64,000 nt of DNA from Candidatus Bathyarchaeota archaeon (GCA_963827165.1 CAWGZR010000012.1:64001-128000), one strand, 5' to 3'; positions 4,469 through 64,000 are shown, counted from the stretch's first letter. Made by a program: numbers and translations. The notes: a model not told the origin generated them from the letters alone.

Positions 4469-5992
4469 TTGGGTTTTGAGGCTAAGTTGTGGATGACTGC
4501 CGACAAGCTGCGTAATAACATGGACGCTGCAGAATACAAACATGTTGTTTTAGGCCTAATTTTTCTCAAGTATATTTCTGATGCCTTTACAGAGGTTTAT
4601 AATGATTTGAAGAATGATAAACTCGCTGATCCTGAGGATGTCGATGAGTATAGGGCTCGGAATGCTTTTTGGGTTCCGGCTAAAGCGCGTTGGGATTTTT
4701 TGCAAAAGAACGCCAAACAGCCAACCATTGGAATAACAATGGATGATGCGATGGATGCTATCGAACGGGAAAACCCCAGCTTGAAGGGTGTTTTGCCCAA
4801 GAACTATGCCCGTGAAAGTCTGGACAAGCAGAGACTTGGAGAGCTAATCGATTTAATCGGCACCATAGGCTTAGGCGATAGGGAAAGCCGGAGCAAAGAC
4901 ATCCTCGGCAGGGTTTACGAGTATTTTCTGGGTCAATTTGCTGATGCTGAAGGCAAGAAAGGCGGCCAATTCTACACTCCCAAAAGCATCGTTCAACTTC
5001 TCGTGGCCATGATTGAACCTTTCAAGGGCAGAGTCTTTGACCCATGCTGTGGCAGCGGCGGCATGTTCATACAAAGCGAAAAATTCGTAGCCGCCCACCA
5101 AGGACGCTTAGACGACATACACATCTTTGGGCAAGAATCCAACCAAACAACCTGGCGCCTCTGCAAAATGAACCTCGCCATAAGAGGCATAGAATCAAAA
5201 GAAGTAAGATGGAACAACGAAGGCAGCTTCCTAAACGACCTCCACAAAGACCTAAAAGCAGACTATCTATTGGCTAATCCGCCGTTTAATGATTCTGACT
5301 GGAAAGGCGAAATGCTAAGAGAAGACAATCGCTGGAAATACGGCACACCCCCCGCAGGAAACGCAAACTTTGCATGGGTACAACACTTCATACACCATTT
5401 AGCACCTCATGGCATAGCGGGTTTTGTGCTTGCAAACGGCTCAATGAGCAGCAACACGTCAAACGAAGGAGAAATACGCAAAAACATGATCGAAGCCGAT
5501 TTAGTGGATTGCATGGTAGCCCTGCCCTCCCAACTATTCTACAACACAATGATACCAGCATGCCTATGGTTTGTTGCAAGAGATAAGCAAAATAATAAAT
5601 TCCGAGACCGCAGAGGCGAAGTGCTGTTTATTGACGTTCGAAAGCTTGGAGTAATGGCTGACAGAAGGCATAGAGAACTAACACCAGAAGACATCAAGAA
5701 GATTTCCGATGTTTACCATGCGTGGAGAGGAGAACGGGTAGATGGACAAGCAGTAGAATACCGAGATATTGCTGGATTCTGCAAAGTCGCAAGACTTGAG
5801 ACCATTAGGAAACAAGGACACATACTAACACCTGGACGTTATGTTGGCACTGAAGCGCAAGAGGAAAATCATGAAGAATTTAACAAGAAAATGAAGCAGT
5901 TTATCGCTGAACTTTCAGAGCAAATAGAAGAAAGCAAGAAGCTTGATGAAGAAATAATGAATAGTTTGGAAAGTATCGGATATGGCGCCTGA
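4469..5992 (+). CDS. hsdM: Type I R-M methyltransferase subunit (true start may be upstream at 4412)
   Basis: [14 protein letters not shown] and NPPF motifs. Confidence 0.97.
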
Positions 5993-7332
5993 GGACAAAG
6001 TACTTTTCAAACAAACTGAGATAGGAATGATTCCTGAAGATTGGAGAGTAGTTAGCACGAATGAAGTAGTCGCCTCAGAGAAAAATTCTTTAAAAACTGG
6101 GCCATTCGGAACCCAGCTGAAGAAATCCTTTCTTGTTGCAAAAGGCTTTAAAGTGTACGGACAAGAAAATGTTTTTCGAAATGATTTTTCTTTCGGGGAT
6201 AGATTTATACCAAAAGAAAGATTTGAGCTCTTGAAATCCTGTGAGCTGAAGCCCGGCGATATAGTTATATCCAGAATGGGAACCGTCGGCCTATCAGCTA
6301 TTGTACCTGGCAATATTCAGCAAGGAATAATGGATTTCCATCTTTTGAGGCTAAGACCTAATCGCTCAAAATTTGACGCTGAGTTTCTCCTTTACGCTAT
6401 TCGTTCCGAAGTAATCCAGAATCAGATAAACTCGCTTTCTGTCGGGACTATTATGGATGGATTGAGTTCCAAAGTGATTGGAATGCTAATGTTCCCAATG
6501 CCTTCGCTCCCAGAACAAAAAGCCATTTCGAAAATCTTAAGAAACTTTGATTCGAAAATTAAAGTCAACTCAAAAATGAACCAAAATCTGGAGTCCATCG
6601 GGCGGGCCATTTTTAGTCGTTGGTTTGTTAATTTTGAGTTTCCTAACCAAGAAGGTAAGCCCTATAAATCATCAGGCGGAGAAATGGCGGAATCAGAAAT
6701 AGGTTTAATTCCAAAAGACTGGAAAATTCTCCAAAATATTTCTGAGGCTTGCGAGTTGATAAATTATGGTTACACTCAAAGTGCCAGTAATGAGAACGTT
6801 GGTCCTCATTTTCTAAGAGTGATGGACATAAACAAAGCGGATTGGGTTAATTGGGGTACTGTTCCATTTTGTAAGATTTGTGAAAAAGACAAACCGAAAT
6901 ATTTGCTCAAAATGAAAGATATCGTTATAGCCAGAATGGCTGACCCTGGTAAGATTGCGATTTTTGAGTCAGATTTAGAAGCTATTTTTGCGTCGTACTT
7001 AATTAGAATACGTTTGAAAAACCCACATTATGGGTATTATTTTTACCATTCTTATGAAGTCGCCGTATTATCAAAATTTCATAGAAGGGGCTACTACTGG
7101 CTCAGTTCAAAAAAATCTAAATGCTAAATCGTTAACATCAAACTTACCGGTAATTATACCTAACAAGGAAGTAACTATTTTGTTTGACTCTATCATAGAG
7201 AATTTACGAGCTAAAATAAACTGCAACTTGGCAGAATCTACTACTTTAGCCAAGGTTAGAGATAGCTTGTTACCAAAACTCATGTCTGGAAAAATTAGAG
7301 TTCCTATCGATAACAAAGTGGAGTCGTCTTAA
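5982..7332 (+). pseudogene. hsdS: Type I R-M specificity subunit with a +1 frameshift near 7050
   Basis: IPEDW/IPKDW repeats, PSLPEQKAI and RDSLLPKLMSG conserved regions distributed over ORFs 5982..7127 and 7030..7332. Confidence 0.9.
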
Positions 7333-10300
7333 TGTCTTCGGTTATTACTGAGTCGCAAGTTGAAGAATCCTGTCTTGACTTATTTAGAAATCTTGGGTAC
7401 AGCGTGATTTCTGGTCCTGATATTTCTGAGGGCGGAATAGCTGAAGAACGTAAGTACTGCGAGGTTGTGCTTGTTGGCAAGGTTAAGGATGCTTTGAGGC
7501 GAATTAACAAATCCATTCCTGAAACCGCTATCGATGAGGCTGTTAAGAAGGTTTTAAGAACTGAGAGTCAGGAACCGGTGGCTAACAATCAGCTTTTCCA
7601 TAAGTTAGTAACCGATGGAGTTGATGTTCAGTACAAGCGAGAAGACGGCAGTATCAAAGATTCCAAAGTTTGGCTTTTTGACTTTAAAGACTTAAGTAAT
7701 AATGAGTTTTTGGCTGTTAACCAGTTTACGATTATCGAGGAGCGCAATAACCGGCGACCTGACATTATCTTATTCGTTAATGGGTTGCCGCTGGTTTTGA
7801 TTGAATTGAAGAATCCGGCAGACGAGGAAGCTACTATTTCTTCTGCCTTTAAGCAGTTTGGAACTTACCAGAAAGAGATTCCGTCAATTTTCCGCTACAA
7901 CGAAGTCTTAGTCATCAGCGATGGAACCTATGCGAAAGCTGGAACCATGACTGCAAAAGAAGAACGCTTTTCACCCTGGAAAACAATCAATGCCCAAAAA
8001 ACACCAAAAACCCAGCCACAAATCGAAGTCCTAACAAAGGGAATGCTTAACAAATCAACGCTCATGGATTTAATCGCGCACTTTGTTGTTTATGAAGCTG
8101 AAAAAGACAAGAAAGAAGGCACCGTCAAACTTTCTAAGAAAATCGCTCAGTACCAACAATACAACGCAGTCCAAAAAGCCCTAACATCAACGGTGAATGC
8201 TACAAAAAAAGATCGAAAAGCTGGCATTGTTTGGCATACGCAGGGTTCAGGAAAAAGCTTAACGATGGTTTTCTATACTGGGAAATTGGTTTTGAACCCT
8301 GCCCTTGAAAACCCAACGGTAATTGTGTTAAATGATAGAAATGACTTAGACGACCAGCTTTATGGAACTTTTAGTAGATGTCATGCTCTTTTGAGGCAGG
8401 AGCCACGGCAGGCAACAAGCAGGGAAGAGCTAAAAGAGCTTTTGCAAGTCTCATCAGGCGGCATAATTTTCACAACTATCCAAAAGTTTTTCCCAGAAGA
8501 CCAAGAAACAAAATATCCCCTACTATCCGAAAGGAAAAACATAATAATTATAGCCGATGAGGCGCACCGAAGCCAATACGGTTTTGGACTTAAGGTGCCA
8601 AAGAACGTTGATTCTGAAGCTCTAAAGTATGGTTATGCTAAATATCTTCGGGATGCTTTGCCCAATGCAACTTTTATTGCTTTTACGGGAACTCCGATTG
8701 AAAAGGCAGATAGAAGCACACCTGCAGTTTTTGGAAAAATAATAGATACTTACGACATTAACCAGGCTGTTGAAGATGGCTCCACGGTTAGAATCTATTA
8801 TGAGAGCCGACTTGCCAAAATCGAGCTTAAACCAGAAGAAAGACCATACATTGACCAGGAGTTTGAGGAAGTTACCGAGGGCGAAGAGTCAGCGGGCAAA
8901 GAATACCTCAAGAGCAAATGGAGCCGACTTGAAAGGCTCGTTGGCAGCCAGGAACGCATCAAACGGGTAGCCAAAGACATTGTGGATCACTGGGAGAAAC
9001 GTGTTAGCGTTCTTGATGGCAAAGGCATGATTGTTTGCATGAGCCGTCGCATCTGCGTGGACCTGCATAATGAAATAATTAAGCTCAAACCTGAATGGTA
9101 TAATCCAGATGATGACAAAGGGTACCTCAAGGTTGTGATGACTGGGTCAGCTGCGGATGGACCAGATTGGCAAGAACACATTCGCAATAAGCAGCGCAGG
9201 CATGACCTTGGGGAACGCATGAAAGACCCCTCCGATCCCTTCAAAATAGCCATAGTCCGTGACATGTGGCTAACCGGCTTTGATGCGCCAAGCCTCCACA
9301 CAATGTATCTTGACAAGCCTATGAAAGAAGCCAACTTAATGCAGGCCATCGCACGGGTTAACCGAGTCTTCAAGGACAAAAAAGGTGGTTTAATCGTTGA
9401 CTACATCGGATTAGCAAACGACCTAAGAAAAGCCCTTGCAGAATACACAGAGGACGACAGAAGACTAACCGGCATTCCGCAAGAAATGGCAATAGCCAAA
9501 ATGCAAGAAAAATACGAAGTTGTAAAGGCACTTCTTCACGGCTTTAACTTTCAAAAATTCTTCGCAGCCCCAGCAAACGAAAGAATGACCATCATGCTAG
9601 AAGCAATGGATCACATATTAAAACAGGAAAACGGCAAAGAACGCTACCTCAAAGAAGTCAACGCCTTGCTCTGGGCTTTCGCTCTCTCGGTTCCAGATGA
9701 TCAGGCTTTGAAAATTAGAGATGATGTGGGCTTTTTCCAAGCTGTGAAAGCAGCCATAATCAAGAACACTGAGACTAAATCAAGCCAAGAGCAAGACGTA
9801 GATACAGCAATAAAGCAGATCATTTCAAAAGCCATCATTAGCGACCGAGTAATCGATGTCTTCGCTGCCGCTGGACTCAAGAAACCAGATGTCTCCATCC
9901 TTTCAGAGGAGTTCTTGGAAAAAGTTAAGGAAATGCCGCAAAAGAATCTCGCCTTTGAAACCCTAAAACGTCTCCTAAATGATGAGATTAGGTTTAGGCA
10001 GAAGAAGAATCTGATTCAGGCCCGCTCGTTTGAGGCGCTGTTGGATAAGGCGATTAAGGCTTATACTAACAAAAGTGTTGAGACAGCTCAGGTTATAGAG
10101 GAGCTAATTGAGCTTGCAAGGAAAATGCGGGAAGAACAAAAAAGAAACACCGAGCTAAATTTGAGCGAAGAAGAAATCGCTTTTTACGATGCTTTAGCCG
10201 ACAACGAAAGTGCAAAACAGGTTCTTGGCGATAAAACGCTGCAGGTTATGGCACGAGAGCTTGTGGATATGGTTAGAAAGAACGTTACGATCGATTGGAC

Positions 10301-10454
10301 GCTGCGAGACAACGTTCAAGCAAAACTGCGAATCATGGTTAAACATATACTCAAAAAATACGGTTACCCACCAGATAAGCAGGAAAAAGCAACCATAACA
10401 GTTCTCGACCAAGCAAAGCTGTTATGCAAAGATTGGGCGGAACCACAAAACTAA
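7332..10454 (+). CDS. hsdR: Type I R-M restriction subunit
   Basis: [19 protein letters not shown] nuclease motif; [20 protein letters not shown] and MWLTGFDAP helicase motifs. Confidence 0.97.
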
Positions 10455-14943: not shown

Positions 14944-16323
14944 CTACAATCTAAGTAGATATTTGTCCTCGCTTAATGTTTGCAACAAGCTCCATCCATC
15001 ACCAAGCTTCTTCATTAGCTCGGTTTCTCCTTTTGCAACTGTGTACTTTTTCTGTTGAGGTATAGGCCTATTGTGTTCACTTGTTGGTTTAGATTGCGGT
15101 TTAACTTCTTCTCCCGACTCTTGTTCGTGTTGATCATTATCGTCTTTAAAGCGTCTGAACTCAGTGATTGCTTCCTCAGGGTCTTTTGATCGCTGTAAGG
15201 CATCTTCTAATTTCTTAAGTTGGTCTACTCCGTAACCGTTAAGTTTAGCAAAGTCCAGCAGCATTTGACTTCTAAGCTTCTTCTCATCCAATACTCGAGC
15301 ACCTTCATGCAAAAACTCAAGGTCAGGAAGAGCCTGTTTATACTTTGCACGAAGTTGTTCAATTAGTGGCTTCGAATAAGGTGCTTCTTCACCGCTAACT
15401 TTTCTGCCTTTAATTTTCTTAATCCAGTTGTTAGAACAGCCAGCGTTTTCTAAAGCAGTTTGAACAATCCTTCGCCCATCATGGAAAGTAAAATCAACAT
15501 TTGCTCTTTGCTCAAGCATTGTTGCTTTCTTGGCGATAATGCGGTAACTCAAAGGCTCTCCGATATTGCGTTTAACTGATAAGAATACGTAGTCGTCATT
15601 TGTCCACTTATGATTAAATGTGGTTTCCATCCATCGCCTGTATTCAATTAGTACTTTTTTTGCTTCAGGTGTTAGGAAGGTTTCTTGTTTTACTCCTCGA
15701 TACTTTCCTTTGCCATGACCTTTAATCATGTCAGAGGGCAAAGATATGTGGGGAATCTCTTGCGTTTGCCAATCCGCTTCAAAGTGTGAGAAACGAAGTT
15801 TTGAGATTGACTCTATCGCTATCGCCGAGGTTGTTCCTAACATAACTAATGCTTGGTCTCTGGGGTTTCGACATGCTTTGAACAGTGCTAAACGATTTTC
15901 TTTAGATGGCACAGTTTGGCTTTCATTTTGTATATAAGGCATTGACCGCCCAGCTTGAGCTTGTAGCTGCTTATAGTTAGTTCTGAAGAATCCTCTCACA
16001 CATTGAGCCACATGCCACTTGCGTCCTTCTGGAAAATTGACTTTTGCGTTAGATAGACTGTCGAGTAGCTTCTCTGCGTCTAAGCTGTTAGAATCCTTTT
16101 TCAAATCTAGGAGGCCATTAGGGTCTAAGTGTGACCACGTGCAGAAGTGATAGAGCGACATGGCTACATTGCCTTGTCTATTATTGAGTTTTCCGAGATA
16201 GTTCATCACGCATTCATAGTTTTTTGCCCAACCGTCGATGATCGTGTTTTCCGTGTAACCATACTTTAAATTCTTCTGCTTGTCTTTTATTATACTCATG
16301 ACCTCGCCACTCTCAAGCAACAC
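14944..16323 (-). CDS. Tyrosine recombinase/integrase (likely start ATG 16299)
   Basis: RDQALVML, K (IKGHGK), FHDGRR and a C-terminal Tyr (APYS). Confidence 0.85.
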   Translation of the reverse strand: MLLESGEVMSIIKDKQKNLKYGYTENTIIDGWAKNYECVMNYLGKLNNRQGNVAMSLYHFCTWSHLDPNGLLDLKKDSNSLDAEKLLDSLSNAKVNFPEGRKWHVAQCVRGFFRTNYKQLQAQAGRSMPYIQNESQTVPSKENRLALFKACRNPRDQALVMLGTTSAIAIESISKLRFSHFEADWQTQEIPHISLPSDMIKGHGKGKYRGVKQETFLTPEAKKVLIEYRRWMETTFNHKWTNDDYVFLSVKRNIGEPLSYRIIAKKATMLEQRANVDFTFHDGRRIVQTALENAGCSNNWIKKIKGRKVSGEEAPYSKPLIEQLRAKYKQALPDLEFLHEGARVLDEKKLRSQMLLDFAKLNGYGVDQLKKLEDALQRSKDPEEAITEFRRFKDDNDQHEQESGEEVKPQSKPTSEHNRPIPQQKKYTVAKGETELMKKLGDGWSLLQTLSEDKYLLRL

Positions 16324-26060: not shown

Positions 26061-26621
26061 TTGCCGAAGGTTAAAGCTACTATAAGCGTTGAAAACGTTG
26101 TCGCTTCTGCAACGCTGAACCAAAAAGTTGATTTGAACGCCGTCGTTAAAGGTTATCCAGGCGTCGAATATCGTCCTGAACAATTTCCAGGTTTAGTTTT
26201 CAGGTTGAAACGGCCCAAAACCGCGACTTTAATTTTTAGTTCGGGAAAAATGGTTTGCACGGGCGCTAAGTCAGAGAAAGAAGCAAAACGAGCCGTCATG
26301 AAAGTAGTAAAGGAACTGAAAAAAGGCGGCATCATAATTATCAGCAAGCCCGAACTTAAAATCCAAAACATTGTGGCTTCAGGCGGACTTGGCGGTATGA
26401 TTGACTTGGAAAAAGCCGCTTACACTCTGGGTCACGCTATGTATGAACCTGAGCAGTTTCCCGGCTTAATTTATAGGATGCAGGAGCCGAAAGTGGTAAT
26501 TCTGTTATTCGCGAGCGGAAAACTCGTCTGCACAGGAGCCAAACAGGAACAAGATGTTTATGTTGCGGTAGAAAAATTGCATACGCTACTTGAAGAAACT
26601 AGCCTAATATTCTACGAATGA
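26061..26621 (+). CDS. tbp: TATA-box binding protein
   Basis: Two repeats of NVVAS...Y.PEQFPGL..R...LIFSSGK.VCTGAK. Confidence 0.98.
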   Translation: MPKVKATISVENVVASATLNQKVDLNAVVKGYPGVEYRPEQFPGLVFRLKRPKTATLIFSSGKMVCTGAKSEKEAKRAVMKVVKELKKGGIIIISKPELKIQNIVASGGLGGMIDLEKAAYTLGHAMYEPEQFPGLIYRMQEPKVVILLFASGKLVCTGAKQEQDVYVAVEKLHTLLEETSLIFYE

Positions 26622-51698: not shown

Positions 51699-51871
51699 TG
51701 GTGGGGCCGGCCGGATTTGAACCGACGACCTTTACCCAAGAACGGCGCGAAGCCGTTCTTTACGGGTTTCTCTAGACACGCTCCAGAACTTCGTCATTCC
51801 TCTGGGCGAGGTCAGCAAACCCGTTGCTTGCTTCTGGAGCCCGTCGTCATACCTGTCTAGACTACGACCCC
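51699..51871 (-). tRNA. trnW: tRNA-Trp(CCA) with two introns (37/38: 51768-51833; 43/44: 51732-51761) and encoded CCA end
   Basis: GGGGTCG/CGGCCCC acceptor stem, ACGGG-CTCCAG|A-CCCGT anticodon arm, GTCGG-TTCAAAT-CCGGC T arm; 77 nt after removing both introns. Confidence 0.93.
51768..51833 (-). ncRNA. Intron-encoded box C/D-type guide RNA
   Basis: ACGGGTTTG+CTGA (D'), ATGACGA (C'), and TTCTGGAGC antisense to the anticodon loop. Confidence 0.75.
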
Positions 51872-55772: not shown

Positions 55773-56138
55773 GCGAAACCATCAGTTTAAACCAATTTAG
55801 GGATTGAATAGGTTATTCTACTTAGCATGTGGAGTAATTAAGTTATTCTGTTGTATAGAATAAGCCTTGAAGCTGCATAATACTGTTTAGTTTCTATCGT
55901 GGAAGAATAGTTGGTTTGCGGCTCCTTGTAGATGATGTTTCGGATTTTTGTGGCAGCATGTTCTTTCCCATTATGATGTCCCTTTAACGAGCTAGACAAT
56001 CGTTAAGGGTTTATACGTCGATTGTCGATTTGGGGTTGCTGCAACTACAACCAATGTTTACATTATTTCAGTTTTTATGCGGTGATGTTTATATATTTCT
56101 TGATTTAATAAACAAACGTCAAATATACCGTTTGGGGC

Positions 56139-56621
56139 GTGAGAAATTTGGGTACAAAACCCAAAAAAACTCCGAAGAAAATGTTGGACTCCGTCGATGA
56201 TCAAATTATACGCGCATTGGAAGACGATTCCCGTCTGAGCCTACGCAAGTTAGCACAAAGAGTCGGTTTAACCCCAAACATTCTGCACAAACACCTTGAA
56301 ACGCTCGAGCATGACGGCATAATCCTTGGATATGTGCCCGTAGTTGACTCAGCAAAAATGGGTTTAGCTCTCACAGCCATAATCATGATCCAGATCGAGG
56401 GAGGACACATCCGAGAAGTAGAAGAAGAAATAGCAAAAGAAACCAATGTCTCCTCCGTATACGACATAACAGGGGAGTACGACGCCGTCGTTTTCGCCAA
56501 GTTCCAAGACAACCCAAGCCTCAACGCTTTTCTAAAAAAACTCCTCGGCGACCGATTCATAAAAAGAACAACAACCCTTGTTGCACTCAACGCCGTTAAA
56601 GAATGCAGCAAAGTGATTTAG
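56139..56621 (+). CDS. Lrp/AsnC regulator
   Basis: LDSVDDQIIRAL..DSR and YDITGEYD. Confidence 0.92.
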   Translation: MRNLGTKPKKTPKKMLDSVDDQIIRALEDDSRLSLRKLAQRVGLTPNILHKHLETLEHDGIILGYVPVVDSAKMGLALTAIIMIQIEGGHIREVEEEIAKETNVSSVYDITGEYDAVVFAKFQDNPSLNAFLKKLLGDRFIKRTTTLVALNAVKECSKVI

Positions 56622-56761: not shown

Positions 56762-57433
56762 TTGAAGAGCATCAAGGGCATCTTGGTTGTTGGCGAAAAA
56801 AATATTTTTGGCGAGTTAGCCCAGTTGGTTGACATAGCCATGGAAGCTAACGCTCTTTTGGGAAAAATGTTCAAAATGAGCCCCACGGACAACGAGTTGA
56901 CTGAAGCTCTGCGTGGAATCCAGGCGCTTCAGAAAAAAGCGGGTGACGTTGGCTTCAAAATGAACGAGGGCATCACAGGTGGCGCGGTCAGCCCCAATGT
57001 TATCGATAGCCTGCTCAGGTGCGACATAATAATCGGCGATGTAGTTCACACCTGTCTTCACATCAGCCGGGAACTTGCAAGAATGGCTGAAGCCTATTCC
57101 GCCGGGCTTGAAATGCACCACGCCGACTGGGACTCTGTGTTTAAGAATATGCTCGAACTTATAGAAAAATCACTTTCAAAGCTCAGGCAGGCCCTTTTCT
57201 CTTCGGATATGGCTGAGATTTTCAGTCTGCACAAGGAAATACAAGTTTTAGAGGAGCAGGGCGACGATGTTAAGGACCTCGGCTTTGATAGGTTGTACAG
57301 CATTGCCCCGCAACTCCATTACCTTGAATTTTACCACTACCAAAAAATGCTTCATAACTGCGAAGACATTTTAAACGACTGCTCAGACTTCGCCTCTCTG
57401 ATAGTGTCTGTGGTTACATCAATCCTTAAGTGA
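56762..57433 (+). CDS. DUF47 phosphate transport regulator
   Basis: LEEQGDDVK motif; adjacent to PiT. Confidence 0.8.
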   Translation: MKSIKGILVVGEKNIFGELAQLVDIAMEANALLGKMFKMSPTDNELTEALRGIQALQKKAGDVGFKMNEGITGGAVSPNVIDSLLRCDIIIGDVVHTCLHISRELARMAEAYSAGLEMHHADWDSVFKNMLELIEKSLSKLRQALFSSDMAEIFSLHKEIQVLEEQGDDVKDLGFDRLYSIAPQLHYLEFYHYQKMLHNCEDILNDCSDFASLIVSVVTSILK

Positions 57434-57440
57434 CGCTCCG

Positions 57441-58406
57441 ATGATTTGGCTTTCTTTTGCAGTTGTCATCTTGACCTTCGTTGCCGTGATGCTTGTTGCA
57501 GGAAACAACCTGTCTGCATGCGTAGGCCCCGCCATAGGCTCGAGAATCATAACTAAAAGGTTCGGGATGCTGCTTGGCGCCGTAGGGTTTTCCATAGGAC
57601 TTTTAGCTCAGGGTGCTGGAATGATAAAAACAGTCGCTAGGCTTTTGCCGAGCGGTGCCATGCAGTTTCGCGCTGAAGCCTTGTTAGTTGCCATATTAAT
57701 CTTTGTTATCGCCGACTTGATTAGGGCGCCGATGTCTGTTAGCATGTCTCTCGTCGGAGTGCTTGCAGGCCTGTCGGTTGCCGAGGACACATTTAGAAGC
57801 GGCGCTTACGTGTCTGAGGTTGCCCTAATGTGGGTTGCGGCCCCCATAATCGCTATAGCATTCTCGTTTTACGTCCTCCGCTTTATCAATAGACGCAAAC
57901 CGAAGAACTTTTGGCATAGGCTGCAAATCTACAAGATTCTACTCATTGCTTTGGCGCTTTCCACCTCGTATGTATTGGGAGCAAACACCATTGGCTTGAT
58001 AGTTGCCACGGGAGGCTTTGACTTGCCAATTGTAGCTTTGGCTGTCGTAGCAATTTTCATCGGTGCTTTCTTCTTGAGTGCGGGTGAGATTCGCAGAGTT
58101 TCGGAGGAGCTTTTTCTCATGCGGTACCCCAATGCAACTGTGACTCTTTTGACTTCCACGGTTCTTGTAGAAGCGGCTACCCTGCTGAGAATTCCGCTGT
58201 CAAATACCCAAGCGCTTTCGGCGTCGGTTCTCGGTGCGGGGATTTCGTATAAGTCGAAGTTTGTTTCTGTTAAGCCTTTTCTTATTATAGTTTTGAGCTG
58301 GGTGATAGCGCCGTTGCTTAGCTTTTCGATTGGGTTGTTGCTGGGCAGAACTCTAGACGCTGTGTTGATTTGTTGGGCGATTACTTTTGACATGTTTAGC
58401 GTTTAG
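57441..58406 (+). CDS. PiT-family inorganic phosphate transporter
   Basis: GNN / GAN repeats, P.S..Q, SWVIAP. Confidence 0.82.
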   Translation: MIWLSFAVVILTFVAVMLVAGNNLSACVGPAIGSRIITKRFGMLLGAVGFSIGLLAQGAGMIKTVARLLPSGAMQFRAEALLVAILIFVIADLIRAPMSVSMSLVGVLAGLSVAEDTFRSGAYVSEVALMWVAAPIIAIAFSFYVLRFINRRKPKNFWHRLQIYKILLIALALSTSYVLGANTIGLIVATGGFDLPIVALAVVAIFIGAFFLSAGEIRRVSEELFLMRYPNATVTLLTSTVLVEAATLLRIPLSNTQALSASVLGAGISYKSKFVSVKPFLIIVLSWVIAPLLSFSIGLLLGRTLDAVLICWAITFDMFSV

Positions 58407-58433
58407 ACATTTTATTGTGTATTATTTTAGTTT

Positions 58434-58474
58434 TTCATAAAAGTTATGAACAAATATTAACTAAGCTTATATTT
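58434..58474 (+). promoter_or_regulatory. Promoter P1: TTCATAA-N3-TTATGAA box plus TATA
   Basis: Box at 58434-58450; TTATATTT at 58467. Confidence 0.75.
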
Positions 58475-58514
58475 GGTTGAACGCCTTATTGCTACACTTG
58501 AATTGGTGTTACAA

Positions 58515-58625
58515 TTGAAGAAAGCGACCAAAGAAACTGAACGAAACTTTGAAGAGCAAGTTATCTTGGACTCTCGAAGACAACCTCATAGCATCTTTCG
58601 AAAAAGAATTTTCAAGAAAAAATAA
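58515..58625 (+). CDS. 36 aa basic microprotein MKKATKETERNFEEQVILDSRRQPHSIFRKRIFKKK
   Basis: TTG start, GGTG RBS, 48 nt from the P1 TATA box. Confidence 0.55.
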   Translation: MKKATKETERNFEEQVILDSRRQPHSIFRKRIFKKK

Positions 58626-58689
58626 GCAAACAGAGTGCACTCCTAATTTATAAGCTCGCAGTTTTGCTTTTGGAAAGTTGAGGCATTCA

Positions 58690-58840
58690 GAGATTTTTTT
58701 TGTTTGTGTTTTGGGTTCTTTTTTTGGTTTGAGGCTTGGATTGGTTGCAACTGTATGCTATAATATGCCATAATATGCTATAAAGCGCTAAAATATGCTA
58801 TTTTAAGCTAAAAAACGCTAGAATATGCTAGAAAAGGATA
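58690..58840 (-). repeat. 10-bp-period array element, copy B (TAGC x8 plus tail)
   Basis: GCTA/GCCA every 10 bp from 58757 to 58827; tail aligns to copy A. Confidence 0.8.
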
Positions 58841-58879
58841 GAAAAGACAATGTGAGTCAACAGAGGGGAAGAGGAAATT

Positions 58880-59060
58880 CGAGCTTTGGGATGTTTTGGG
58901 TTTTTTCGCGTTTTTTTTTCCGCTAGTGTTTTGAGTTGCTTTCATGCTGGGAAGCTTGAATCACTTGTAGGTTGCGTCCTAAAACGTCGCCAAACGTCAG
59001 GTACCGTCATAAAACGTCACTAAACGTCAACAAAAATTAACATGCGACCACAGACGTCAA
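58880..59060 (-). repeat. 10-bp-period array element, copy C (GACG x7-8 plus tail)
   Basis: CGTC at 58975 ... 59025 and 59055; tail GAAAGCAACTCAAAA aligns ungapped to copy A. Confidence 0.8.
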
Positions 59061-59128
59061 TTAACAGCGTTATAGTGTTTAGAATTGGACGATTCAAAAA
59101 AAAAGGTAGAAAGACCCAAAGAAGGGGG

Positions 59129-60691
59129 TCAGTCTTTTTTCCAGAACATTAGAGTTCCGGATTTGGCAGCCTTCTTAGGCTCGCTCTCGTCCTCATCTTT
59201 GCCTGGGAACGGGAACAAACCGGAAGACTTTGATTTTGAGTTAACCCGGAAATAGATTAACCCTATTGCTAGCCAAATTGCAGTGCCTGCTATAGCAAAG
59301 ATTCCTTCTTGCGCCGAAGCCCCTCCGCCAGCAAAGCTTAGGTACACAATAGTGGCCATCATAACTGCGTTAGCCGCGAATCCTGCGATTGGAATTACTC
59401 TGCGTTTCAATATAGACGCTCTCTCTTTAGTGAAGGCGATCAATGCAACAATGTTTGTTAGTGCATACAGCAGGAAGGTGCCAAAGTTAGACAGCAAAGT
59501 AATGGATGTTAAGTTCGTGATCGTCAGTACTCCGAAAGATCCTATGGCGGCTGCGACAGCGGTCATTACCCAGATTCCAATGGCTGGAGTCGAGTACTTT
59601 GGGTTTAGCTTGCTAAGGTGATAAGGCACTTCAGTATCTCGGCTTATAGCGTAAGTTACTCTAACACCGGTGTTCATGCATGCAAGCGTAGTTCCTAATA
59701 TTGCGGCGGCAACAATGGCGGCTATTATTAACTCGAGTGTGAACCCGTTGCCTCCGAGGAATACGTTCCCAAGGTTTCGAACCATATCTCCGATGGGAGC
59801 GCTTGAAACTGCAGCAGCACCAAATCCTGAGAACACCTTGCCGTTTTGCGTTACTGTATAGCTACTGTTCATCCATGCCTCAGCTCCGAAATATTCGAAC
59901 AGATACGCGAAGGCTCCTTGAATAACCAATGATAAGATGATTGCTTTTGGAACGACCTTGGGGTCTTTGGCTTCTCCGGTATAAGCAGTCGCGGATTCGA
60001 ACCCGACTAGCACTAAGATAGCAATGGTCGCTTGAAATAGCACGAAGCTGATGTCATGAGGTGTAACTATTCCGCCAAGGCTAATGAACGTGAAACTTAC
60101 ATGTTGAGGGTTCGTAAGACGGAACGCCAATGCCATTCCAGTGATGACCACCAGCATCCCGATTTGAACAATGTTCAGAAGAAGGTTCGTTCTTGTTGAT
60201 CCTTGAATCCCGCGATAGGCTATTGCGCCTGTAACAACCGCAAATACGCAAGCAATGGCAATTTCCCCTAAGGGTGAGACGCCGAAACCGAGTACAGATA
60301 GGATCCATGTGAGCAGGATGGACATTGCTGCGACCATGACCCCTGGATAGACCCAGTAATAGAGGTGAGAAATCCACCCGACACCGAACTTTGCGTTTCT
60401 AGCCGAAGTGTTGCTGGCTCCGTTGTCTAGTAAGGCTCTTTGAGCGAAATAGTACGAACTGCCTGGACCGGCGTCGGGGTATCGTCGTGCTAGCCACGAA
60501 TAAGAAGCGGCAGTTAGGAACGCCAAGATTAATGCTATTGTGAGGCCAAAAAATATGTCGTTGGCAGTTGAAGCGCCAGATGGCGAGGTCTGGGCTGCGT
60601 TTATCTGAAAAGTGAGCCATAAGAATGCTCCTGGAGCTATTAAGGCCATGGCGTTTATTGTGATGCCGCCTAGGCCTAGAGTTTTTTGCAA
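59129..60691 (-). CDS. APC-family permease
   Basis: ~12 TM; GFESAT...E.KDP...PKAI, R..YAISRD, TP. Confidence 0.9.
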   Translation of the reverse strand: MQKTLGLGGITINAMALIAPGAFLWLTFQINAAQTSPSGASTANDIFFGLTIALILAFLTAASYSWLARRYPDAGPGSSYYFAQRALLDNGASNTSARNAKFGVGWISHLYYWVYPGVMVAAMSILLTWILSVLGFGVSPLGEIAIACVFAVVTGAIAYRGIQGSTRTNLLLNIVQIGMLVVITGMALAFRLTNPQHVSFTFISLGGIVTPHDISFVLFQATIAILVLVGFESATAYTGEAKDPKVVPKAIILSLVIQGAFAYLFEYFGAEAWMNSSYTVTQNGKVFSGFGAAAVSSAPIGDMVRNLGNVFLGGNGFTLELIIAAIVAAAILGTTLACMNTGVRVTYAISRDTEVPYHLSKLNPKYSTPAIGIWVMTAVAAAIGSFGVLTITNLTSITLLSNFGTFLLYALTNIVALIAFTKERASILKRRVIPIAGFAANAVMMATIVYLSFAGGGASAQEGIFAIAGTAIWLAIGLIYFRVNSKSKSSGLFPFPGKDEDESEPKKAAKSGTLMFWKKD

Positions 60692-60725
60692 TGCCGGTGA
60701 CTTTTGCGTCTGTTCACCTGTGGAG

Positions 60726-60860
60726 TCAGTAGGTATCTAATTTCCCCCCTTTAAGTGGCAAGCTGAAAATAGCGGAAAATAGTTTTTCGATTTTGACAAC
60801 TAATGTTTTGTGCTTTCTGCTTGTCTCTTTTACATTTGGAGATTCCATTTCCTTTTTCAT
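60726..60860 (-). CDS. 44 aa microprotein MKKEMESPNVKETSRKHKTLVVKIEKLFSAIFSLPLKGGKLDTY
   Basis: ATG with GGTG RBS, 48 nt from the P2 TATA box, directly upstream of the permease. Confidence 0.55.
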   Translation of the reverse strand: MKKEMESPNVKETSRKHKTLVVKIEKLFSAIFSLPLKGGKLDTY

Positions 60861-60900
60861 CTAGAAACACCGAACTTTTAGTAGATATGGCAAATCTAGT

Positions 60901-60941
60901 GAATATAAACTTGGTTAAGATTTGTTCATAATAATTATGAA
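60901..60941 (-). promoter_or_regulatory. Promoter P2: box plus TATA
   Basis: Box at 60925-60941; TTATATTC at 60908-60901. Confidence 0.75.
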
Positions 60942-61246
60942 TAACTGTAAGTATTTTCATTATATTAATAAATTAATGCATAAAAAGTCATTGAAAGATG
61001 TTTCTGTTGAACAAAATAAAGAAATTTCTTGCGGGCAAGGCAAGAGGGCAAAACATTACGGGCTTCCTTTGAGAAAAACCTTCAAACGACCTCAAATTCT
61101 GAAATCCATTGCCTCGCCTCCGATTACACAAACATTTCGAACAGCAATCAAGATTCTCTTTTTTATGCTCCTTCGCAGTCATGTTTTAATATTTTCAATA
61201 AAAAAAGCGCCATTGGCGATATTTATGGGGTGCGAATTTTACGGCA

Positions 61247-61342
61247 TCACTTGATTTTTAGCTGTAACCGAATTTGGTAGCCAATCGTCGCTATTGACCC
61301 CATTATGACACATGTCCAGACTACATCCACTAATCCAAACAT
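61247..61342 (-). CDS. 31 aa single-TM microprotein MFGLVDVVWTCVIMGSIATIGYQIRLQLKIK
   Basis: GGTGG RBS; paralog at 61758. Confidence 0.75.
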   Translation of the reverse strand: MFGLVDVVWTCVIMGSIATIGYQIRLQLKIK

Positions 61343-61392
61343 TTTTCCACCAGATTCCAATTTTATTGAACGATTTCTAAGGAGAAAGCATC

Positions 61393-61433
61393 CTATATAA
61401 ACGTAATTGTGAACCGTTCATAACTTTTATGAA
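61393..61433 (-). promoter_or_regulatory. Promoter P3: box plus TATA
   Basis: Box at 61417-61433; TTATATAG at 61400-61393. Confidence 0.75.
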
Positions 61434-61676
61434 AAATAAAAAAGCTGTGCAATTGGAGAGAATGAAATTAGACGTTTGGCTGTGTAATTTCTATTTGCTT
61501 GGACACTTGGTCCGGTCCAATTCGTTCTCGGTTCGGGCACTTCAATTTTCATCCTCAAAACCCGAAGTGGCCACCTCTCATAAAATAAATGTGCTTTTTA
61601 GTTGTATCAAACAAGCTCACGCCAATTATTTATTTCACACGAATTTTCTTTTGTCATTTTGACGCTTGTCGATGTT

Positions 61677-61717
61677 TTATGAAATGTTATGAACAAATCA
61701 CAACTTTATTTATATTT
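61677..61717 (+). promoter_or_regulatory. Promoter P4: degenerate box plus TATA
   Basis: TTATGAA-ATG-TTATGAACAAAT; TTATATTT at 61710. Confidence 0.7.
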
Positions 61718-61757
61718 AGCTGAGCAGATAACTAACTTACGTAAAAACGGTGAAAAT

Positions 61758-61856
61758 ATGTTTGGACTATTAGATTTAGCTTCAATCGGTTTAATCTTTG
61801 CTTCATTCGCTATTATAATGTACAACATCAGATTAGAGCTCAAAATCAAAGCATAA
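61758..61856 (+). CDS. 32 aa single-TM microprotein MFGLLDLASIGLIFASFAIIMYNIRLELKIKA
   Basis: GGTGA RBS; paralog at 61342. Confidence 0.75.
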   Translation: MFGLLDLASIGLIFASFAIIMYNIRLELKIKA

Positions 61857-61893
61857 TACACGAAATATGTTTTGTGCACTTTAAATCACAAAG

Positions 61894-62091
61894 ATGAGAA
61901 ATATGGAATTCAAAAACATACACGAAGCATTGAAATATATTAATCACCGAGCGAAAGCCTATCCGAGTGAAATAGACTACTATTCATCGGAAGAATACAG
62001 AAAAGTTTATCCTGAACTTTGTCGCGTAAATCGCTTATTGCAAGCTGCTTATAATGTTCGTCATGAAAGTGGCAGCGTGCCCTTGCGCTAA
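61894..62091 (+). CDS. Small hypothetical protein
   Basis: 65 aa ORF following the microprotein. Confidence 0.45.
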   Translation: MRNMEFKNIHEALKYINHRAKAYPSEIDYYSSEEYRKVYPELCRVNRLLQAAYNVRHESGSVPLR

Positions 62092-62381
62092 GATTCTAAA
62101 GCACATGTTTCTAGCCGACGGCTTTAAAGAGAAAGGAGAAATAGTAACATTAAATGCCATACTCTCACTACACTAATCTGGAAGAACCGATAAGCTGGAA
62201 AATGAAACGCATTTTCTCGAAAAGTTTTCTGAAGGACATAATATCAAGAAAAGGCAGCGCCAAGGAATGCGATAAAGCCGTCGCCTCATTCGTCTTGATG
62301 TGCAAAGTCAACCGACCAAAAAATTACTTAAGGATTTAAGAGGATCGCGCATTAGACAATAGTTCGGTTGGCGGAGTATAT

Positions 62382-64000
62382 TTGGAAAAAGCTGCTTCTT
62401 TACAAATTTACGAGGTCTTCGACGATCTAGGGACGTCACCAAATGGTTTGTCAAGCGAAGAGGCAAAAATTCGCCTGACTAAAAACGGCTACAACCAACT
62501 TTCCGAAAAAAAACAATTACCCTTTATTCATAAATTTATTAGAAATCTTCGGGACTTATTCGGCATTTTATTGCTCGTTGCAAGCATATTATCTTACATA
62601 AGCGGCAGCCCGGAACTCGCATTAATCATACTGGCTGTTGTTTTCGTAAACATTTTTGTAAGTTTGTTCCAAGAGTCCCGTGCAGAAAAAGCGATGGCAA
62701 CTCTGAGAAGCTGGATGCCTGAGTTTGCCAAAGTAATTCGAGACGGAGAGCTTAAGAAAATCTCAGTCAGAGAAATCGTTCCCGGAGACATTATATCTCT
62801 TGATGAAGGCGACCGTGTGCCGGCAGACGCACGCTTAATCGAGGCTTTTGACTTGTGGACCAATAATGTCCCCTTGACCGGCGAATCGGAGCCGCAGCCG
62901 CGTGTTGCTGAATCGGTGCAAGTTGTAGAGAAAGCCTACTTGTACGCGCCTAACCTCGTGTTCATGAGCACAAGTGTCGCCAAAGGTCAAGGGAAAGCAA
63001 TTGTTTACTCAACAGGAATGAATACCCAGTTTGGAAAAATCGCTAATTTAACTCAGACAATCCATGAAGAGGAAAGCCCGCTTCAGAAAGAAATCGCTTT
63101 AACAGCAAAGTATGACTTCATAATTGCTATTGGCGTTGGCGCATCATTTTTTGTCGCTAGTTTTCTGTTTCTACACGCAACTTTGGCGACAAGCATTTTC
63201 TTTATGATTGGTGTAATGGTTGCTTGTGTTCCTGAAGGGTTACAAGTCACTGTGTCGAGCGCCTTAGCTATCAACGTTCTAAAGATGGTCAAGCAGAACG
63301 TTTTAGTAAAACGGTTATCAGCCGTCCAAACCTTAGGCAGCGTTACCGTAATCTGCACAGACAAAACAGGCACGATAACAAAAGGCGAAATGACTGTAAA
63401 CAAACTATGGGTTTACAACTACGTTGTGGATGTTTCCGGTTTAGGTTATACGCCTGAAGGAGACTTCACAACAAACGGTCAGCCATTGCAAGAAGGGCAA
63501 ACGGATTCACTAGAGAGGCTCATGGAGATTGCCGCGCTCTGCAACGGTGCAAAGTTGGATCCACCTTCGGATAGAAACAAAAATTGGGGTGTGATAGGTG
63601 ATCCTACCGACGGGGCTTTGCTCGTTGCGGCACTTAAGTCGAATGTGAACGTCCAGGATGCTCTGGACAAGAAACCCATTGTGCATCTTTTGCCGTTCAG
63701 TTTTGAGCGAAAACGAATGAGTACCGTGCATAAATTGAACGGTGATTTCTATATTTATACGAAAGGTGCTCCCCGAAACATCTTAGATATATGCAACAGA
63801 GTGCTTGTGGGCGGCGAAATTAAAGAATTAGACGAAGAAAACATGATGCTTGTTGAATCAAGGATTCGCGAGTTTGCGAATCAAGGCTTGCGAGTCATAG
63901 CTGTAGCGTATAAGGTGATACCCAAAAACCAATACAGCAAAGACGAAGCAGAGGAAGACCTAATTTTTGTCGGCTTAACTGCGATGCGCGATCCTCCCAG
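62382..64000 (+). CDS. P-type (type II-like) cation-transporting ATPase, truncated by the window end
   Basis: TTG start with GGAG RBS; GDRVPADAR, LTGES, VPEGL, ICTDKTGTIT, GDPT, KGAP, MRDPP. Confidence 0.95.
   Translation, partial: MEKAASLQIYEVFDDLGTSPNGLSSEEAKIRLTKNGYNQLSEKKQLPFIHKFIRNLRDLFGILLLVASILSYISGSPELALIILAVVFVNIFVSLFQESRAEKAMATLRSWMPEFAKVIRDGELKKISVREIVPGDIISLDEGDRVPADARLIEAFDLWTNNVPLTGESEPQPRVAESVQVVEKAYLYAPNLVFMSTSVAKGQGKAIVYSTGMNTQFGKIANLTQTIHEEESPLQKEIALTAKYDFIIAIGVGASFFVASFLFLHATLATSIFFMIGVMVACVPEGLQVTVSSALAINVLKMVKQNVLVKRLSAVQTLGSVTVICTDKTGTITKGEMTVNKLWVYNYVVDVSGLGYTPEGDFTTNGQPLQEGQTDSLERLMEIAALCNGAKLDPPSDRNKNWGVIGDPTDGALLVAALKSNVNVQDALDKKPIVHLLPFSFERKRMSTVHKLNGDFYIYTKGAPRNILDICNRVLVGGEIKELDEENMMLVESRIREFANQGLRVIAVAYKVIPKNQYSKDEAEEDLIFVGLTAMRDPP

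Follow-up and report, generated by a model that had tools for sequence, protein, structure and literature searches.

Results

The region studied here, positions 58434..61856, belongs to a 64,000-nt stretch of DNA of Candidatus Bathyarchaeota archaeon (GCA_963827165.1 CAWGZR010000012.1:64001-128000), hereafter called the window. It contains four putative promoter units, termed P1 to P4, each consisting of a 17-bp repeat (the box), a TATA box and a small open reading frame (ORF), which are grouped around an APC-superfamily permease gene; genes for an Lrp/AsnC-type regulator, a PhoU_div protein and a PiT phosphate transporter lie upstream of P1 and a P-type ATPase gene lies downstream of P4 (Table 1). 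Database homologues of the P2 ORF and of KdpA are labelled Candidatus Bathyarchaeia, and the window also encodes TBP (26061-26618), FtsZ, a type I restriction system and phosphate ABC transport. An initial annotation had regarded the four units as an activator-controlled regulon in which microproteins accompany transporters. The comparison with related loci presented below indicates that all four sites are probably genuine archaeal promoters and belong to a single conserved family, the module of which appears to be under strong selection.

In the window, TTCATAA-N3-TTATGAA was found without mismatch at 58434, 60925 and 61417, as the initial annotation had claimed, whereas each of 100 dinucleotide-preserving shuffles of the window contained no match. 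The site at 61677 shows three mismatches to the palindromic box. When up to three mismatches were allowed, 10 matches were obtained in the window as compared to a shuffle mean of 6.08, and loose matches therefore mean little; significance is restricted to the perfect sites and to the composite pattern. This pattern, TTATGAA-N16-TTATAT, occurs exactly four times in the 64 kb, two copies per strand, all located at 58444-61687 and hence within 3.3 kb. In all four units (P2 and P3 being read on the minus strand), the starts of the proximal TTATGAA and of the following TTATAT are 23 nt apart, with a constant gap of 16 bp between box and TTATAT, which agrees with the phasing stated before. A 50-nt position weight matrix derived from the four units yielded 56.7-65.5 bits for these, 9.4 bits for the next site, namely the opposite strand of the P2 palindrome, and 2.0 bits thereafter. 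The ORFs described earlier, of 36, 44, 31 and 32 aa, were likewise retrieved at distances of 48, 48, 58 and 48 nt from the respective TATA boxes, each with a GGTG-type ribosome binding site 4-8 nt before its start. Between the four units, identity amounts to 12-17 of 17 positions in the box as compared to 3-12 of 25 positions just 3' of the TATA box. The boxes of P1, P2 and P3 represent perfect 7+3+7 dyads with the centres AAG, TTA and AAG, respectively, and share in this way the dyad with A/T-rich centre of Lrp/AsnC operators; the P4 box is a direct repeat, in which this dyad is not found. The predicted module therewith spans about 40 bp, comprising the 17-bp operator, the spacer CAAAT(C/A)nnAA and a TATA box that starts 23 nt after the start of the proximal half-site.

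On the plus strand, at 60956-60965, an additional TTATAT was observed 25 nt after a half-site of the palindromic P2 box, hinting at a divergent promoter; a plus-strand TATA box beyond the P2 box was not found in the related loci. Two further ORFs were considered as genes and dropped: a 110-aa ORF at 60922-61254, which is without Pfam match, and a 77-aa plus-strand ORF at 61429-61662, which starts inside the P3 box, contains an in-frame stop in the related locus L016 and has possible starts that differ between loci.

Related loci were collected in one contig scan with six P4-type peptides, which returned 24 loci (L001-L024). As these were selected by the P4 peptide alone, the comparison of their P4 promoters is unbiased. 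The window's own genome is not part of this set, the best peptide identity to the window being 90%. By label, 22 of the 24 loci stem from Bathyarchaeota or Bathyarchaeia metagenome-assembled genomes (MAGs); L003, labelled as an Acidobacteriota MAG, and L007, labelled as a Methanomassiliicoccales MAG, share the cluster, their proteins being 73-92% identical to those of the window, and are probably mis-binned contigs. Several MAG loci contain frame-shifted genes, e.g., kdpA and kdpB in L010 and L015, so that single frame shifts in the small ORFs have to be read with care. Gene maps of the loci were based on Pfam and tblastn, and dN/dS was calculated after Nei-Gojobori with our own script.

Upstream of the P4 peptide gene, TTATGAAC is present at the same position in all 24 loci, followed 14 nt further by TTTATAT in 23 of them (TTTAAAT in L018), and GGTG precedes the ATG in 23 loci as well (GAGTG in L014). 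The box-TATA phase of the window is kept throughout this peptide-selected set, in line with the constrained distance of Lrp-type activator operators, and TTATAT or TTTATAT is retained in the relatives. A pattern scan for box plus TATA in the window and the 24 loci (467,627 bases) detected 59 promoters, as compared to none in each of 20 first-order Markov simulations, and within these approximately 468 kb the box was seen only in the cluster described here. Except for four others, the 59 promoters fall into classes orthologous to P1 to P4, given here with the window included: P1 has 11 copies (10 related loci; distal half TTCATAA in nine), P2 has 10 copies (nine related loci; TTCATAA in eight) and P3 has eight copies (seven related loci by pattern, besides which L003 was recognised by eye; TTCATAA in six). 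The P4 class comprises 26 copies, 21 of which possess TTATGAA as distal half. For this reason the P4 box, which the initial annotation had called degenerate, and which does deviate at three positions from the palindrome, is a conserved direct-repeat variant and not a decayed copy.

Within classes, the pairwise difference was 0.03-0.10 in the box, 0.08-0.20 in the 15-nt spacer and 0.00-0.03 in the TATA box, where proximal half-site and TATA are fixed by the scan pattern and find their fair test in the 24 peptide-selected loci. The same classes differed by 0.27-0.51 in the 35 nt upstream and by 0.26-0.44 at synonymous sites of the adjoining ORFs. An almost unchanged box next to synonymous sites that have diverged to this extent points to selection on the box itself. 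Moreover, the module precedes unrelated genes, namely the P1 peptide gene, the P2 leader with the permease, the P3 and P4 peptide genes, a glutamine synthetase gene (L008, L023), a gene for a RAM domain protein (L013) and an Lrp-like gene (L023). Conservation in relatives had been set beforehand as a test of the initial annotation, and motif, phasing, ribosome binding site and all four ORFs were found conserved. In nearly all loci a second conserved element, TTAGACG..TGTCGA (TAGAC-N4-GTCKA, weakly dyad), precedes the P4 box by about 18-20 nt. The window contains a related sequence, TTAGACGTTTGGCTG, on the right-hand side of the P3 box.

The peptides encoded by P3 and P4 are paralogues with 55% identity. 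A profile search with both recovered 21 cluster representatives (50% identity) at E<=1e-3 among 1.84 billion proteins; these are 30-60 aa long and share the motif MFGxxD...I..S.A....Y.IR.ELK. In the longer representatives the extra N-terminal residues correspond to the translated conserved GGTGAAAAT leader, and in P0007 also to the ATGAACAAA of the box, which means that their starts were mis-called and, at the same time, gave the first sign of promoter conservation. For P3, dN/dS was 0.23 (eight sequences; 11/4/19 variable columns at the three codon positions, of 28) and for P4 it was 0.28 (26 sequences; 15/9/26 of 28). Judged by this codon pattern, P3 and P4 are protein genes of a new family of hydrophobic peptides of about 31 aa. 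No Pfam match was obtained at E<=10 for the two window peptides and four homologues, KdpF (PF09604) included, and the peptides had neither an NCBIfam match nor a match to solved chains (PDB) beyond chance. Comparison of the P4 peptide and of orf65 with the ESM Atlas gave scores of 0.76-0.80, which is the chance range. The predicted complex of KdpA (alignment of 71) with a P4-type peptide (alignment of 32), run without controls, received a score of 0.00 and a mark of 0.32, and nothing is drawn from it.

P1 likewise is probably a protein gene: orthologues of 34-36 aa with retained TTG start were found in seven loci, and dN/dS was 0.32 (seven sequences, the window being omitted because of an indel; 13/8/19 variable columns of 30). 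No Pfam, NCBIfam or PDB match was found for the P1 ORF, the database evidence for this peptide consists of the 24 loci, and BLASTP gave no alignment between the P1 and P2 peptides. In L007, L012 and L015 a second APC permease gene (59-66% identical to that of the window) starts about 40-50 nt behind the P1 ORF, with RAM-kdpABC next, all in the same direction; the P1 ORF is still conserved in genomes without downstream permease. In the window, the P1 unit and the 3' end of the permease gene are 503 bp apart, and this spacer contains two arrays with a period of 10 bp, TATGCTATAA x7.7 at 58754-58830 and AAAACGTCAC x5.4 at 58981-59035, whereas the spacer is shorter and without arrays in most relatives. 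A comparable array is present at this place in L022; its 10-bp units are AAACGGTT-like and, as in the window, TTGCAGGTTGAGG-like words stand on either side of it. These arrays may represent a small inserted element or a protein-binding array.

The P2 ORF is followed on the same strand by the APC permease gene, as had been stated. The AA_permease_2 domain covers the permease over its whole length, as in the APC superfamily, and the substrate-level model TIGR00909, with 77 bits, remained below its cut-off of 557. Permease orthologues with 86-97% identity each stand after a P2 unit in the related loci. For the P2 ORF six database homologues with 65-98% identity and a one-codon in-frame indel were found, and no Pfam, NCBIfam or PDB match. 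ATG, GGTG and the open frame are kept in all 10 P2 units, and in three of these copies (L003, L014, L017) the 3' half is read in another frame. Over the whole length dN/dS was 0.55 (six sequences of equal length; 21/21/21 variable columns of 44), and for the first 22 codons it was 0.60 (10 sequences; 9/10/12 of 21). Because the ORF always stands before the permease gene without constraint at the codon level, it looks like a translated leader, the peptide sequence of which would matter little. For the P2 leader only a weak consensus fold was obtained (-10.9 kcal/mol, unfavourable covariation term, compensatory changes in two of 28 pairs), regulatory codon runs were not seen in the ORF, Rfam gave no match across 58300-62500 at E<=1, and in the window no GGTG is present closer than 23 nt to the permease start.

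In the related loci the promoters frame a larger cluster with a canonical order. Lrp, PhoU_div and PiT genes are followed in the same direction by P1 with the 36-aa ORF; then, in the opposite direction, come the APC permease gene behind P2 with its 44-aa ORF and the P3 peptide gene behind P3; RAM, kdpA, kdpB, kdpC and RAM genes follow in the forward direction, then a further RAM gene in reverse, and finally P4 with its peptide gene forward. The order Lrp-PhoU_div-PiT-P1 is kept in L007, L012 and L015. kdpABC, flanked by RAM genes between P3 and P4, was found in 15 of the 24 loci, several of the remaining ones being too short to tell; about 1-1.5 kb separate its end from the P4 peptide gene. 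The P3 and P4 genes, which thus flank kdpABC, have their own promoters outside the kdp operon and point away from it. P4 units without any pump nearby are present in L004, L006, L018 and L019. A box-like promoter of the form TTCTGAA-AAA-TTATGTG/A + CAAATCAYAA + TATA precedes kdp in nine of 14 loci by pattern, and in L021 by eye; in the other loci, the operon preceding kdp has the same orientation, encodes a permease or glutamine synthetase and is driven by a box. Between the box-like promoter and the first gene of RAM-kdpABC lies a conserved leader of about 280 nt (L013 3998-4336; L014, L016, L017, L022), which could hold a further small ORF or an RNA element; Rfam at E<=0.1 reported only tRNAs on L014, this leader included, and on L002.

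The stand-alone RAM genes (Lrp/AsnC ligand-binding) that frame kdp number 48 and form two clusters, with 32 and 16 copies, both of which are distributed over 16 loci. To our knowledge, the pairing of kdp with RAM-only proteins is not found in described kdp systems. In L008 and L023 a box promoter precedes the glutamine synthetase gene, which is followed by asparagine synthase genes. Box promoters were also found at a RAM gene in L013 and at a further unit at position 16027 in L023, and the Lrp-like gene in L023 has a degenerate box promoter. The suggestion that microproteins accompany transporters has to be revised for the P2 ORF, which lacks codon constraint and behaves like a leader, and has to be widened to the box-driven glutamine synthetase/asparagine synthase and RAM genes. 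The earlier guess at K+ homeostasis, on the other hand, gained in strength from the presence of kdpABC inside the cluster and from its own degenerate box in 9-10 of the 14 loci.

P4 points toward the ATPase gene, as had been noted: the P4 gene, orf65 (65 aa), orf61 (61 aa) and the ATPase gene follow each other in this order on the same strand. This variant, P4 unit followed by orf65, orf61 and type II ATPase, is common to the window, L001, L002, L003 and L023. L001 continues after the ATPase with RAM-kdpABC-RAM and a second P4 unit, and the window's genome probably continues in the same way beyond base 64000. Full-length ATPase orthologues of 926-932 aa in L001 and L023 additionally contain Cation_ATPase_C, and the domain composition is that of type II ATPases; the best NCBIfam models, PMR1-type Ca and Na,K-type, both remained far below their cut-offs. 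orf65 stands directly after the P4 peptide gene in seven of the 24 loci, three of which are without any ATPase. The region 3' of P4 is variable, with a tRNA gene immediately after the P4 unit in L014 (10264-10339) and integrases in L005 (11174), L016 (10452) and L013 (13236). An integration hot spot thus seems to mark the end of the conserved cluster and would account for the variation in the genes that follow P4.

Table 1. Features of the P1-P4 region and its surroundings (positions in the window unless a locus is named)
Feature	Position	Strand	Remarks
Full-length Lrp/AsnC regulator, candidate box-binding protein	56139..56621	+	Pfam HTH_24 and AsnC_trans_reg
PhoU_div (DUF47) and PiT phosphate transporter pair	56762..58406	+	Pfam; ends 28 nt before P1 box
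P1 operator box TTCATAAAAGTTATGAA	58434..58450	+	perfect match
P1 TATA box TTATAT	58467..58472	+	23 nt after proximal half-site start
P1 small gene, 36 aa, TTG start	58515..58625	+	basic peptide; GGTG 6 nt upstream
APC-superfamily permease (AA_permease_2), 520 aa	59129..60691	-	Pfam PF13520, E 2.6e-21, residues 45-469
P2 probable leader ORF, 44 aa	60726..60860	-	stops 35 nt before permease start
P2 TATA box TTATAT	60903..60908	-	48 nt upstream of ATG at 60860
P2 operator box, palindrome	60925..60941	-	perfect match
P3 small gene, 31 aa, MFGLVDVVWTC...	61247..61342	-	hydrophobic peptide; orthologues in 8 loci
P3 TATA box	61395..61400	-	58 nt upstream of ATG at 61342
P3 operator box	61417..61433	-	perfect match
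Second conserved element	61468-61482 and 61657-61672		
P4 operator box, TTATGAA-ATG-TTATGAA	61677..61693	+	direct-repeat form kept in relatives
P4 TATA box	61710..61715	+	23-nt phase
P4 small gene, 32 aa, MFGLLDLASIG...	61758..61856	+	hydrophobic peptide; 24 related loci
orf65, conserved small protein	61894..62091	+	58 database clusters at E<=1e-3; no Pfam or NCBIfam match
orf61, between orf65 and ATPase	62154..62339	+	tblastn only L001, L002, L003, L023, 45-70% identity; no family match
Type II (P2) cation P-type ATPase, N-terminal 539 aa	62382..63998	+	reaches window end; Pfam Cation_ATPase_N, E1-E2_ATPase, Cation_ATPase
Stand-alone RAM genes, locus L013	4336-4623, 9178-9468, 9579-9818, 11619-11909		same in 15 other loci

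Elsewhere in the window, an Rfam tRNA match over 170 nt on the minus strand at 51702-51871 (38.4 bits) was missed by ARAGORN; it probably represents an archaeal tRNA with an intron, which presumably explains the miss. A complete type I restriction-modification system (HsdM, HsdS, HsdR) is located at 4469-10451 and 14947-16323, with a weak match to the phage integrase family below the Pfam cut-off nearby; it looks like a defence or mobile island unrelated to the promoter set.

Discussion

The P1-P4 units and their relatives are probably best explained by one conserved promoter family with a shared operator that exerts cluster-wide control, and the genes concerned most likely constitute a single operator-controlled K+/nitrogen cluster, as far as this can be read from gene content and synteny. 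We propose that P3 and P4 give rise to short mRNAs, each for one hydrophobic peptide of about 31 aa, P1 to an mRNA for the basic 36-aa peptide and P2 to the permease mRNA, in which the 44-aa ORF would serve as translated leader. The promoters would mark a compact gene cluster for cation and nitrogen supply, which in the relatives is built around the high-affinity K+ pump kdpABC, presumably co-transcribed with stand-alone RAM-domain genes, and which further comprises one APC permease or two, an operon for glutamine synthetase and asparagine synthase and, in the lineage of the window, the type II P-type ATPase. We infer that the box is an operator for a dimeric helix-turn-helix protein. In the proposed mechanism the operator, immediately upstream of the transcription factor B recognition element (BRE) and TATA box, is occupied by an Lrp/AsnC-family dimer or oligomer, which acts as an activator by aiding TBP/TFB binding, with the full-length Lrp encoded upstream of P1 as candidate binder and the RAM-only proteins of the cluster as its ligand-sensing partners; the perfect, and hence strongest, sites would drive the small genes and the weaker site kdp.

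That the box works by activation seems slightly more probable than that it does not. The choice of the Lrp-family protein as regulator is based on linkage and stays tentative, a little short of an even chance in our estimation. Syntenic Lrp orthologues are present in L003 (77.5%), L007 (73%), L012 and L015 (both partial, at locus edges), and among solved structures PH1519 (FL11) is the second-closest to Lrp with an E value of 3.4e-21. According to a review of Lrp proteins (PMC2995911), the sites of archaeal activators of this type (Ptr2 of Methanocaldococcus jannaschii, LysM and Ss-LrpB of Sulfolobus) lie upstream of BRE/TATA at a fixed distance and are accompanied by further sites upstream, stand-alone RAM proteins exist with an unclear role, and the targets of Lrp in Halobacterium include glnA as well as phosphate and peptide transport genes. 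These points fit the cluster in view of its syntenic Lrp, its several RAM-only genes and the second element about 20 bp upstream of the P4 box; the dyad of P1 to P3 is of the same kind, the position of the box upstream of BRE/TATA, already pointed out in the initial annotation, recurs here at fixed distance, and the Halobacterium targets resemble the genes found here. By contrast, natural Lrp sites are described as degenerate in the same review (PMC2995911), whereas the boxes found here are perfect and near-invariant across genomes, and the P4 class differs from Lrp-type sites as a direct repeat.

Several observations weigh against the proposed control. The direct repeat of P4, the best conserved class, has no simple explanation by a symmetric dimer. 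The Lrp gene's own promoter is without a full box and shows only a shared TTTCAGTTTTTATG stretch beside its TATA, and the TTAGACG..TGTCGA element hints at the involvement of another factor. Since the spacer from box to TATA is conserved, the basal machinery, and not a regulator, could be what recognises the module. As for the 44-aa ORF, two alternative C-terminal frames and dN/dS of 0.55-0.60 speak against its being a microprotein gene. Promoters, co-regulation and activation are all inferred from sequence, and the box scan covered this cluster only. Regarding the Lrp promoter region (56066-56096), it is conserved in L003 and shares TTTCAGTTTTT with the stretch just before the P1 box; in the Lrp promoter region, TTTCAGTTTTT is followed by ATGCGG and, only 6 nt further, by TATA. 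This TTTCAGTTTTT stretch could be an autoregulatory half-site.

The likeness of the promoters might alternatively be a trace of duplication, with one promoter-plus-small-gene cassette copied within the cluster and no need for a shared regulator. The paralogy of the P3 and P4 peptides, the position of all copies within a few kb, the two P4 units of L001 and the apparent gain of an extra P4 unit together with orf65, orf61 and the ATPase in the lineage of the window would be in line with such a history. Nevertheless, we consider it quite unlikely: the module stands before the unrelated P1 peptide, P2 leader and permease, glutamine synthetase and RAM genes, the units of the window are alike only in box, spacer and TATA, and the near-unchanged box of each class indicates selection on the box against the background of diverged synonymous sites. 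The module could also be an extended core promoter for a particular TBP/TFB pair, and thus a promoter class instead of a specific operator. Fixed TATA distance, the conserved spacer CAAATCAYAA and conserved bases after TATA, TFB genes at a distance of 0.7-2.3 kb on the 3' side of the P4 unit (L004, L017), and the TBP gene of the window would suit this idea. However, archaeal BRE contacts directly adjoin the TATA box and do not lie 16-33 bp upstream of it, a 7+3+7 bp dyad is typical of dimeric helix-turn-helix proteins, and in the sequences scanned the box is confined to this cluster, which makes a core promoter class very unlikely.

Assuming that a regulator does bind, the box might serve a repressor or be a DNA-wrapping site of octameric Lrp, which would keep the cluster silent until K+ or nitrogen runs short. 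Many archaeal regulators, Lrp-type included, are repressors, the P2 and P3 boxes are perfect palindromes between divergent units, and the extra conserved upstream elements about two helical turns away fit cooperative multi-site binding as outlined in PMC2995911. We nonetheless regard repression as rather unlikely, since the box overlaps neither BRE/TATA nor the expected start site, the usual positions of archaeal repression, and since the fixed box-TATA phase in all classes fits the activator arrangement given in the same review (PMC2995911). That the small ORFs are untranslated and the units produce small regulatory RNAs is hardly credible. The P2 ORF indeed shows no codon-position signal and the 5' regions are as well conserved as the ORFs, but P1, P3 and P4 are under purifying selection on the protein with an excess of third-position changes, start codon and GGTG are conserved, and neither the Rfam search around the cluster nor the weak fold of the P2 leader, with its few compensatory pairs, speaks for a structured RNA.

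Operators upstream of archaeal core promoters, small membrane peptides beside pumps and leader ORFs before transporters are kinds of element already known, and it is to these that the promoter family described here has to be compared. KdpF, MgtS/MgtR, sarcolipin and phospholamban, small membrane partners of P-type ATPases, resemble the P3 and P4 peptides: in both cases peptides of about 30 aa possess one hydrophobic stretch and are encoded beside P-type pumps, P4 heading an operon-like row that ends in the type II ATPase. KdpF differs in that the P3/P4 peptides do not match PF09604 and that their genes stand neither upstream of kdpA nor in its operon. In all 11 loci checked, no separate small ORF was found in the 260 nt upstream of kdpA, so that the canonical kdpF position is empty. 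Regarding leader ORFs, mgtL, which precedes the transporter gene mgtA, is comparable to the P2 ORF and, in L007, L012 and L015, to the P1 ORF, which stand about 35-50 nt before an APC permease start; as expected for such a leader, open frame, ATG and GGTG of the P2 ORF are kept in 10 units while the peptide is weakly constrained. In contrast to mgtL-type leaders, neither a regulatory codon run nor a convincing alternative RNA structure was seen in the P2 leader, and the P1 ORF is conserved also in genomes without following permease. We know of no archaeal example of an mgtL-type mechanism. Finally, in bacteria (KdpDE) and in Halobacterium salinarum (kdpFABCQ) the high-affinity K+ pump is made at low K+, according to PMC6255902. 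Here too a high-affinity K+ pump is under a dedicated control region, but neither kdpD/kdpE nor kdpQ was seen next to kdp, which is flanked by RAM genes and has a promoter with a weak box.

The location of the P3 and P4 genes on both sides of kdpABC, together with the empty kdpF position, suggests a KdpF-like or regulin-like role. It is conceivable, albeit doubtful, that the MFGxxD...IRxELK peptides are the archaeal counterpart of KdpF and the regulins, i.e., single-helix subunits that would assemble with KdpABC and the type II pump in order to tune or stabilise these pumps. An Lrp-plus-RAM switch would then determine how much peptide is supplied, and through it K+ uptake would be coupled to the glutamate/glutamine (nitrogen) state of the cell. 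If this were true, the switch would act first and most sensitively on the peptides, as their genes have near-perfect operators and kdp a weak one. A literature search on TTCATAA-N3-TTATGAA gave no archaeal regulator with this site among the matches listed, only primer-like or unrelated ones, and for kdp, potassium and Lrp no paper naming Bathyarchaeia was among the matches listed. Given this result and the missing family database matches, the operator, the peptide families and the kdp-RAM arrangement appear to be undescribed.

Bathyarchaeia are abundant and uncultured, and their gene regulation is almost unstudied. The module described here is sharply defined, conserved nearly base for base, and has few target genes and an obvious candidate regulator. 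Furthermore, the archaeal small proteome gains two or three families from the cluster, among them the hydrophobic peptide of about 31 aa, which is represented by at least 21 sequence clusters and is contained in no family database. The framing of kdpABC by stand-alone RAM genes instead of KdpDE is unusual and suggests that in these archaea amino-acid sensing may be linked to K+ uptake.

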